Assembly: GCF_033153115.1 (NCBI RefSeq)
Contig: NW_026889769.1
Coordinates: 4,650,001-4,714,000 of the forward strand
Origin: Saccostrea echinata
Lineage: Eukaryota
Length of the DNA: 64,000 nt
Reading direction: 5' to 3'
Shown: positions 24,757 through 27,306 of the stretch, piece after piece
How the letters are laid out: the number at the start of each line of letters is the position of its first letter
How positions within the stretch are numbered: position 1 is the stretch's first letter
Position numbers and translations under genes: made by a program
The notes under the pieces: generated by a model
The model's database searches: none
What the model was told of the DNA's origin: nothing
The model's input: the letters and a program-made list of their open reading frames with translations, nothing else

Positions 24757-24760
24757 TTAT

Positions 24761-24902
24761 ATTTGTTGGACCAATAGTCATACAATAATTGCTGTATCTG
24801 GAAATGAAGCGGGGGCGTGACGAGTGCCCGCAGGGCACGAGGTCACGACCCCGTTTCAATTCCAGATACAGCAATTATTGTATGACTATTGGTCCAGCAA
24901 AT
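24761..24902. repeat. 142-bp near-perfect hairpin upstream of the Crypton ATG
   Basis: ATTTGTTGGACCAATAGTCATACAATAATTGCTGTATCTGGAA...GTGCCC-GCA-GGGCAC...TTCCAGATACAGCAATTATTGTATGACTATTGGTCCAGCAAAT. Confidence 0.95.
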
Positions 24903-24983
24903 GTTTTGTGGCACGCCTACTTTCACGAGCTGCAGTGGCATTTTTCGCGCTTCAATTTAGTTGGGATTGTTTTAAGCTAAAAG

Positions 24984-25909
24984 ATGGACGTAGATTTTTT
25001 GGATAATGACTTCAAAGTTGAAGAAATAGACGACATGACATTGTCTCAAGTGTGCGACGAAATGGAAGCTTTCGACGGATTACTGAACATGAGCCTTACA
25101 CAGACGCTAGCAGAGTACGACACAGGATCGGAGCATGGTGAATTTAAGCTTGAATGGGACTTTTTGAGTGAAAATGAAAACAGTTCGAATTTGCCGACCA
25201 CATCGGGTGATCGTTTTGCGCCCCCAGTGACCGAGAGTGAACTGAAATCTCTAATTGAAAGCCAGGAAAACATATTAAACACTAAACAAAACACTAGATG
25301 GGCGGTCAACGTGTTTGAGAAATGGAGAACAGGCAGATCCGAAACTATTCCAGAACTTCAATTCCAGGGCAGCGAGGAAATGAATTACTGGTTACAACGC
25401 TTTATAGTGAAAGCTAGACGGCAGGATGGTAAGGACTACCCCCCTAAGAGCCTGTACTTGATTTCATGTGGACTACTTCGTTTTTTGCGGGACAAAGGTG
25501 TGTACGACAAAAACTTTTTAGACGAAAAAAACACAACTTTTATTGAATTTCGGAAAGTTCTAGATGCAAAAATGAAGTCGCTGATTGAAAAAGGCATAGG
25601 GTGTACTACGAAGCAGGCTGATCCTATTTTACTAGAAGACGAGGCCAAGTTGTGGGATGTTGGAGTGTTTGGAAAGAAAAATGCAGAACAACTTCAGAAA
25701 ACGATTTTCTTTTACGCCTGTAAAATCTTTGGTTTGCGTGGGTGCGACGAACATCATAACCTGGAATGTGAACAGTTTACTATTGGATCAGATCAGCTAG
25801 GAAAATTTATTGAGTTTACGGGTCGAAAAACCAAAACGTACAAAGGAGGGCTCGGACAGCTAAATGTGTGCAACAAGACCATTAAACATCACTGCCAGTC
25901 CGGTAAGAG

Positions 25910-25945
<36 letters not shown>

Positions 25946-26552
25946 AGGATGTACGCTTGCTCGCTCGCTCAGCTTACAAATTCAAAATTTTCTTGTAGGT
26001 GAGAGATGCATTGCTGACTATTTCGATCTATATCTGGATTCTCTTGGACGCCAAGGAACATTCTATCGAAGACCTCTTCCCGCAACATCTGAGGTGCCAA
26101 TCCGATACGGAAATCAAGTTGTGGGAATTAACAAGCTGAAAAACTTAATGCGAATCATCTGCACGGAAGGTGGTTTACAGGGTAATTATTCGAATCATAG
26201 CGGCAAACGCACTTGTGCGACCCAGCTATATATGTCTGGTGTTGAAGAGCAGCAGATAATGGATCGGACTGGTCATCGTTCTCAAGCAGGTGTCCGTAAA
26301 TACAAAAGATCCAGTGCGCAAATGGAAGCTAATGTGTCAAAGATCTTGGATCCGCCCAAAGAGTGTACCGAGAATTCTACTCCGTTGAATACTCTAGATG
26401 GATGCACTCCAGGTATTTCAGATGAGTGTCCCGTTATTCCACAGACTGCAGCAAATGTCCAGGGTGAGGGGGAACCTCAGAGCAAGAGATTCAAACCGAA
26501 CAGATTCCCGTTTGGAGAATTTAAAAATTGTAACATTACATTTCAGTTTTAA
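24984..26552 (+). CDS. Crypton tyrosine recombinase (DUF3504 / KCTD1-ZMYM-QRICH1-related); join(24984..25902,25999..26552), 490 aa
   Basis: A 96-bp GTAAGA..TTGTAG intron joins two ORFs in frame. Motifs NTKQNTRWAVNVFEKW, ARRQDGKDYPP, FGLRGCDEH (R), KTYKGG (K), FYRRP, NHSGKRT (H), TGHRS (H), VRKYKR (Y). Confidence 0.9.
25912..25940. repeat. (CT)n microsatellite in the Crypton intron
   Basis: Direct observation. Confidence 0.95.
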
Positions 26553-27306
26553 AGTGAAATTTTCACAAAAATCAATGACTAGCCAGATAGCTTGTTAAAC
26601 TACCTAAACCTGATATTTCAGAATTGAGTCTTTTTTTTCTTTTTTTTTTCTTTTTTTTTTCTTTGTCTTGTAAAAATTGTACAAGGACATTAAATTTAAT
26701 TTAAAGGTTTTGTTGAAAAATTTAACTTTACAATGGTTGATTAAATGATAAATTTTGTGAGGATTTGATTTTCTTACCTTACAATAATTATAAAATTATT
26801 GTACGGCATAATTACCACGCCTCCTTTGATACAGTGCAATAACTTGCAGTTTCTGAAGTTATTGTACGATGCTAGGCTACGCCTACCTGGGTACAGAACG
26901 AGTACAGAACAAACTGTATTATATAAGGAGAGGAACTAGTAAGTTATTTTAGAACTTGTTTCCAATCCTTTTGATTTAATCAATAAAATATGTTCAAAAC
27001 AATACAGAACGAGTATTGGAAATCACAGTACACTAGTCATCAAAGAAAATACGCCGCATAAGTGCCACAAGTACCCATGTAAAACTTTGATCGCCAAAAG
27101 AGGCCACACCCTATCCCCGGGGTCATTTATACTTAAATTTACACTATGTCCGGAAGCTGTCACATAAGTTTCACCTTTTCTGGCCCAGTGGTACTTGAGA
27201 AGAAGAAAAAATTGAAAATTCCAAAAAGATCTTTAGTTTTACATAGAGAAATTAGTTTTCAGTCTTTTCAATACACTATATTAGCAAAACATGAATTAAT
27301 GTACCG

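Follow-up and report, generated by a model that had tools for sequence, protein, structure and literature searches.

Animal Cryptons of the CryptonA group are short DNA transposons of 1.2-2.3 kb, and in the portion of the survey by Kojima and Jurka (2011; PMC3212892) that was available, terminal repeats were not found in them. In another oyster, Crypton-A ranks among the most frequent polymorphic insertions, according to the accessible text of a recent preprint (bioRxiv 10.64898/2026.02.10.705023). Here we describe a locus within 64,000 nucleotides of the oyster Saccostrea echinata (contig NW_026889769.1, positions 4,650,001 to 4,714,000 of the forward strand; this whole stretch is called the window, and coordinates are counted from its first letter). 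The locus, on the plus strand from 24756 or 24758 to 27070, is very probably a recently inserted copy of an oyster CryptonA-type tyrosine-recombinase DNA transposon whose ends would be joined by its recombinase. The CryptonA-type label is given here on domain content and end features. Like the described CryptonA elements, the locus has an animal host, a length of about 2.2 kb, and a single DUF3504-type recombinase without an extra C-terminal domain, and it carries neither a long terminal inverted repeat (TIR) nor a 4- to 6-bp terminal direct repeat. It differs from them in possessing a 142-bp terminal palindrome, an internal copy of its end-to-end junction, and repeated sites at its ends.

Other described systems, as represented in the accessible parts of the papers cited here, resemble the locus in single features. 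The active CryptonF-1_cRei of Chlamydomonas (PMC9977147) also has a short terminal donor sequence that matches its target and produces no true target duplication. However, that match spans 5 bp compared with exactly 2 bp here, the element belongs to another Crypton group, and its activity has been demonstrated. Glomhoppers, which are fungal CryptonA elements (PMC13465315), share a DUF3504 recombinase with catalytic residues and include intron-bearing copies, but they reside in fungi, and the main text that describes them mentions neither a hairpin nor a palindrome. DIRS-1 (PMC7192593) has an internal stretch complementary to its joined termini (33 + 55 nucleotides, compared with 9 + about 61 here), but it is a retrotransposon with reverse transcriptase, RNase H, Gag, and inverted long terminal repeats (LTRs). 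None of these was found among the open reading frames (ORFs) and repeats of 23000 to 29000. Finally, the attP(+) site of CTX phage and the attC site of integrons (PMC4246890, PMC2727003) each have a pair of inverted sites, separated by about 100 bp, from which a single duplex with unpaired bases can form, and one strand is favored. These systems are bacterial and have a known source of single strands, whereas single-strand use by the oyster element is only inferred.

The words “palindrom” and “hairpin” are absent from PMC3212892 and PMC5753468 and from the main text of PMC13465315. No description of a Crypton terminal hairpin with an internal junction copy was found in the literature searched, and Repbase Reports, Dfam, and Goodwin 2003 lay outside that search. 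Oyster Crypton-A elements are thus already known and polymorphic, and what appears to be new, as far as the literature found goes, is the hairpin end together with the internal junction copy. The database entries for Eulor5 and Eulor6, which are Crypton-derived repeats, are said to mention hairpins.

The boundaries of the element were read from the host repeat that it interrupts and from contigs that represent other copies. To its left lies an array of 166-bp monomers on the plus strand (24154 to 24757), placed by Tandem Repeats Finder (period 166, 3.3 copies at 24154 to 24710) and by the register of all monomers in the window. The last left-hand monomer is interrupted after 24755 or 24757 and resumes in register at 27071, continuing to 27206 on the same strand; the clean split of a host monomer proposed in an earlier note on this DNA is therefore confirmed. 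Because the dinucleotide GT occurs at both 24756-24757 and 27071-27072, the left end is either 24756, with no duplication, or 24758, with a 2-bp duplication. Three contigs of other copies (two in run X8 and one in X13) match the window for 65 letters past 27006, which extends to 27070. The X13 contig (record 12) has 180 letters on its left side, so these 65 letters belong to the right side, and the roughly 149 unrelated letters that follow 27070 constitute a different flank. These matches, together with a 9-bp inverted match described below, point to a right end at about 27070, with GTGCCACAA at 27062-27070 (plus strand) as the terminal sequence.

The two junctions share exactly 2 bp (GT) and agree at only 5 of 8 positions over a longer stretch, and the 4- to 6-bp direct repeats typical of fungal and oomycete F and S Cryptons are absent. 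The sharing of GT only, without a true target duplication, fits the lack of terminal repeats reported for animal Cryptons (PMC3212892). The earlier statement that no pair of TIRs or target-site duplications is present thus holds for long repeats, but it overlooked the palindrome and the 9-bp inverted match. Other arrays of the 166-bp repeat, all of them short, lie at 7682-8018, 55382-56676, 57544-58028, and 63277-63671. In period and in its short dispersed arrays of three to six monomers, this repeat resembles the Cg170/HindIII-type repeats carried by nonautonomous Helentrons (PMC7492417 and PMC8268682, in the parts available). Arrays with 140- to 146-bp units are also present (19090-19424, 21441-22423, and 31288-32262).

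The most distinctive feature of the element is the palindrome at its left end (24761 to 24902), located by repeat search and folding. Its 61-bp arms are 93% complementary and lead through an inner stem to a 3-nucleotide loop, and the whole is predicted to fold at -71.5 kcal/mol (z -21; 0 of 200 shuffles). On the plus strand, sequence and folds indicate that the tip (24822 to 24842) is formed by a 6-bp stem, a GCA triloop closed by C-G, one unpaired G, and a tandem GA/GA mismatch (24822-24823 opposite 24839-24840). GNA loops and sheared GA pairs are stable structures. Just beyond the right arm, at 24906-24914 on the minus strand, lies TTGTGGCAC, which matches the terminal 9 bp of the right end (27062-27070) exactly in inverted orientation. 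Each of the two words occurs once in the window; empirically, a match placed in this way has a probability of about 2e-4 (12 of 63,980 positions). Since this copy is next to the arm, joining the ends lengthens the hairpin across the junction: joined-end folds reach -80.8 or -82.4 kcal/mol, compared with -71.5 for the integrated form, and the joint itself contains mismatches or two additional bases. The end-to-end junction is in addition an imperfect arm-spacer-arm sequence (8/12 match, spacer of 5 or 7 bp), which is the usual layout of tyrosine-recombinase sites (PMC3212892, sections available).

Read depth and contig structure indicate that the palindrome belongs to the element. Its depth is 314 in X8 and 11 in X13, compared with 60-224 and mostly 8-16 for the coding body, whereas separate repeats are 70- to 180-fold deeper. 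Likewise, X13 record 9 connects the right arm (from 24861) to the ORF in another organism. The hairpin in the window has an A/A mismatch at 24804/24859, and 24859 carries the pairing base in both X8 and X13. Among the differences listed, none falls within 24860-24951 and eight fall within 24952-24979. Folding of the top strand is favored over that of the bottom strand by 6-7 kcal/mol, and all three transition mismatches on it form G.T pairs; this top-strand bias is weak.

Searches with the hairpin gave three Rfam matches to microRNA precursors, all under the gathering score, that reflect hairpin shape only. A 20-nucleotide pattern from the arm had no viral matches and nine prokaryotic loci; the latter were dismissed as chance because the match never exceeds 20-23 nucleotides. 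A separate, unrelated palindrome of 106 bp (27307 to 27412; z -12) lies about 240 bp to the right of the element in bins that are about 9,000 deep in X8, and it is probably a fold-back nonautonomous repeat.

A motif search revealed a second class of feature at the ends. The 10-bp core TRCAATAAYT forms two subterminal inverted pairs near the right end (26780/26794 and 26835/26857, together spanning 26780 to 26866) and recurs in the hairpin arms (24781/24873), which gives three inverted pairs in all. There are six matches in the noncoding ends and two in the remaining 61.7 kb of the window, compared with a mean of 0.025 and a maximum of 2 in 5,000 shuffles, a comparison that is optimistic because the motif was derived from these same sites. 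These cores are candidate binding sites for the recombinase or an accessory protein. A word containing ACGCC follows each inverted core pair (24912-24923, 26816-26827, and 26879-26887) and appears again near the right end (27050-27054), a placement that suggests three homologous end modules.

The element carries one long pair of ORFs on the plus strand, and no reverse transcriptase, DDE transposase, or GCR1_C domain was observed among its ORFs and Pfam matches. By ORF analysis, alignment, and modeling, exon 1 (24984 to 25902) covers an acidic N-terminus, the core-binding domain, R252, and K284, and exon 2 (25999 to 26552) covers H373, K376, H399, Y408, and a low-confidence tail. The spliced product of 490 amino acids contains no internal stop, includes the tyrosine-recombinase motifs listed in the earlier note (GLRG at 250, KTYKGG at 284, NHSGKR at 372, TGHRS at 397, and RKY at 406), and is 100% identical to the S. 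echinata RefSeq model LOC133190099 (P0067). All three of its Pfam matches are recombinase related: DUF3504 (PF12012) is above the cut-off (E = 8.6e-15), QRICH1 has an E value of 7.8e-10, and Phage_integrase is below threshold. An AlphaFold model of the protein resembles QRICH1, Cre, XerA, XerH, and integron integrase in Foldseek (E of about 2e-8 for Cre), and structural alignment with Cre gave VIA Z 15.9 and a root-mean-square deviation of 8.7 over 289 aligned residues. Sequence and predicted fold thus identify the gene product as a DUF3504-type tyrosine recombinase that resembles Cre.

Conservation was counted among the homologues fetched, near-duplicates included. R252 is retained in 192 of 205, K284 in 185 of 202, H373 in 141 of 153, H399 in 131 of 140, and Y408 in 121 of 131. 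Position 376 is lysine in 111 of 153 and arginine in 39, so the HxxK form (HSGK) is a trait of the family, and its interpretation as a lesion of this copy was rejected. We considered K287 as the catalytic lysine but found it less likely than K284 (conserved in 92 versus 185 of 202). The putative catalytic set is R252-K284-H373-K376-H399-Y408, in which a conserved lysine would replace the second arginine of the R-H-R-Y series.

The two exons are separated by a 96-nucleotide phase-1 GT..AG intron with a (TC)n run (25903 to 25998, plus strand), defined by the ORF join and by homologue alignments. Of 239 such alignments, 39 stop at residues 305-309, most of them reading G-K into the GT donor, and the donor is at the same position in two relatives with only 49 and 47% identity (loci L001 and L002). 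Four Logan proteins (P0046, P0071, P0073, and P0080; 88-92% identity) continue across the junction in one frame and were therefore read as spliced transcripts. Furthermore, X13 records 10 and 11 end at 25902, whereas X13 record 12 begins at 26000 and X4 record 20 at 25998. Splicing at this conserved position is thus well supported by sequence for the family, contrary to the possibility of an unspliced intron raised in the earlier note. One contig (X4 record 20; 1,273 letters, depth 17) contains exon 2 from the acceptor (25998-26624) with one difference, preceded by 642 letters that are not from exon 1; it possibly reflects the splicing of a different exon to Crypton exon 2, or else a copy whose intron has been replaced.

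Near the right end, this copy has received a secondary insertion. A segment of 98 bp (26905 to 27002, plus strand) lies between two copies of a 13-bp duplication (26892-26904 and 27003-27015, plus strand) that are the only occurrences of this 13-mer on the plus strand of the window. Contigs jump from 26890 or 26894 to 27006 in X8 (two contigs) and X13 (one), and depth over 26904-26999 is 8,597 compared with 123 alongside in X8 and 1,245 compared with 7 in X13. The absence of the segment from other copies and its high depth identify it as an independent high-copy repeat whose insertion was accompanied by a 13-bp duplication. Judged from its AATAAA signal and A-rich 3' end, it is probably the 5'-truncated tail of a long interspersed nuclear element. 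This insertion accounts for the repeat in the segment 26925-27074 that had been left unexplained, and the suggestion that the true end lies near 27074 was about right. In contrast, TTATAT, which had been proposed to mark both ends, was rejected as a terminal repeat: its copy at 26919 is within an insert that other copies lack, and the word occurs 66 times on the plus strand of the window.

The element is a member of a recent, multicopy family. Named loci number two in S. echinata, three in Saccostrea cucullata, and three in Magallana gigas, with 83-99.8% mutual identity, and some may be haplotigs. In a protein tree the copies cluster by host species, as do those of a second family with about 56% identity, a pattern consistent with repeated recent bursts within vertically inherited families. 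We also weighed horizontal transfer between Saccostrea and Magallana (89% identity) on the protein tree, whose grouping by host species makes no such transfer necessary. More broadly, 7,503 cluster representatives match the protein at E values up to 0.001. No relatives were observed among 145 candidate stretches in viral contigs or 28 in prokaryote genomes, and a metagenome scan of 239 candidates yielded four loci (L001-L004), none of which includes both ends; L003 and L004 provided no usable information.

Among the contig pieces listed, those from X4 and X1 differ from the window at 3 of 940 and 15 of 1,617 letters (0.3-0.9%), and the X8 and X13 contigs differ by 7.9 and 9.2%. The sequence evidence therefore supports the young age that had been proposed for this copy. 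CpG richness was rejected as a sign of youth. Raw counts are indeed above those of the flanks, as the earlier note had observed (80 in 2,169 bp of the element versus 40 and 51 in the 2-kb flanks), but the observed-to-expected ratio of 0.91 is close to flank values of 0.85 and 0.88 (window, 0.70 ± 0.19). The higher count thus derives mostly from G+C content and carries no information on age.

The description of this copy as lesion-free, intact, and possibly active must be tempered. Five changes are private to it relative to every covering relative of at least 80% identity: an extra L98, directly before a near-invariant N-T pair, and K143, L217, G445, and G464. The private states of the first three occur in 0 of 17, 0 of 17, and 0 of 21 relatives, and the position of K143 is glutamate in 177 of 189 homologues. 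Considering these few coding changes and the 98-bp insert, this copy is probably impaired. In the X8 and X13 copies, 69 bp at the beginning of the ORF are duplicated in tandem (24987-25055, joint 25055 to 24987), which agrees with the repeated N-terminus of proteins P0065, P0066, and P0069.

How the ends might function can be outlined as follows. The recombinase most likely acts where the two ends meet: it would bind the repeated sites at the termini and bring the right end together with the left, and the resulting junction, with imperfect 12-bp arms and a 5- or 7-bp spacer, would recombine with an AT-rich target that it loosely matches, an exchange that would not produce a true duplication of the target. 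Both the terminal palindrome and the internal 9-bp match to the right end would then belong to the recombination machinery; in the reading we favor, they would enable a single strand to form a folded duplex site that comes into being only when the ends are joined. Specifically, a displaced strand would be circularized, its junction would fold on the internal copy, and a single exchange would be resolved by replication. We hold this route only tentatively, and its extension to animal CryptonA elements at large, which would then recombine as folded single strands in the manner of CTX phage and integron cassettes, is likewise no more than a possibility. It would account for the mirror copy, which is in register with the arm, and for the preserved pairing, and it agrees with the GCA triloop and tandem GA/GA tip on the top strand, with a right end at the border of arm and spacer, and with only 2 bp in common with the target. 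By analogy, in the available portions of the respective papers, CTX makes do with a single exchange and a pair of inverted sites that lie about 90 bp from each other (PMC4246890), attC acts as one folded strand (PMC2727003), and active CryptonF gains copies although it excises (PMC9977147).

Several observations weigh against parts of this interpretation. The element has no replication or nicking gene, and neither a single-stranded form nor an end-to-end (circle) joint was observed among the 15/32 joints listed, which derive from assembled contigs that drop rare forms. The G.T bias of the top strand has a 1 in 8 chance of arising at random, and the unrelated hairpin nearby also differs by 3.7 kcal/mol between strands. 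Of two distant relatives (47-49% identity), neither has a long hairpin upstream of the ORF (best 150-nucleotide windows of -18.6 and -26.5 kcal/mol), and their right ends are outside the contigs. The left end is placed from one copy alone, and contig matches stop at 27070, not at 27072 as expected if GT were obligatory homology in every copy. Regarding the gene, the model is of moderate confidence (mean predicted local distance difference test score of 61.7, with residues 372-375 under 50), X1 records 3 and 4 continue across the intron, and the contig rows listed include no spliced joint for this copy.

A different account, to which we give nearly even odds, follows the Goodwin model: a double-stranded circle is excised, the palindrome and subterminal pairs serve as protein-binding arrays, and the internal copy is a decoy, a regulatory site, or a fold-back relic. 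For such a duplex reaction the junction alone provides an arm-spacer-arm site (8/12), no source of single strands is required, and the 10-bp core recurs at the right end in short inverted pairs that stand without a long hairpin. CryptonF data agree with the model (PMC9977147), and Starships form circles (bioRxiv 10.64898/2026.09.21.753150), as stated in the parts of these sources at hand. However, this account leaves unexplained why the 61-bp arms are still 93% paired, why the mirror extends to the exact nine terminal bases, and why the tip is structured. It is improbable that the hairpin is instead a separate fold-back miniature inverted-repeat transposable element at the left end of a Crypton proper that spans 24906-27070. 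The 9-bp match could be read as the TIR pair of such a Crypton, and an unrelated high-copy hairpin does lie nearby (27307-27412), but the body-like depth of the palindrome, the X13 contig from another organism in which its right arm is linked with the ORF, and the 10-bp core common to hairpin arms and right end all argue otherwise. Least credible of all is a domesticated single-copy DUF3504 gene akin to KIAA1958 or ZMYM, an idea encouraged by the automatic names “KIAA1958-like” and “ZMYM2-like” on relatives and by the lysine in place of the second arginine. The family is multicopy in three oyster species, with several loci per species and a different flank in X13, and therefore is not domesticated. 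The element also sits within a split repeat monomer, has no extra domains, and retains the catalytic Tyr and His that are lost in domesticated genes (PMC3212892, available sections). The DUF3504 domain, Cre-like fold, multicopy family, and split monomer together bear out the original identification of a Crypton tyrosine-recombinase transposon.

The window contains additional features outside the element. An intronless frame of 637 codons on the minus strand (51385 to 53298) lies in a G+C-rich island (41-46%) and ends in a C-terminal TatD DNase-like domain (Pfam E = 1e-17), with a possible C2H2-like motif near residue 210; its lack of introns and its composition suggest a mobile element. Three tandem paralogous frames on the plus strand (1684-2175, 12158-12955, and 17212-18036) are thioesterase-like (4HBT/HotDog), two of which were scanned. 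Arrays of 20- to 22-bp units at 9354-10057 and 59371-60541 are palindromic at large scale as well.

Animal Cryptons are the source of the KCTD1, ZMYM, and QRICH1 genes, yet their ends have been described as lacking features, and the circle through which they would move is still hypothetical. The recent 2.2-kb family described here offers a mapped right end, a defined junction, candidate sites, and a self-completing hairpin, which are substrates for a first biochemical test and could distinguish duplex from folded-strand recombination. Because of its private changes and its insert, the present copy is not the best reagent for this purpose. If the folded-strand route is true, a eukaryotic tyrosine recombinase would be operating by a copy-type route through single strands, in a design that would echo the internal complementary region of DIRS retrotransposons.

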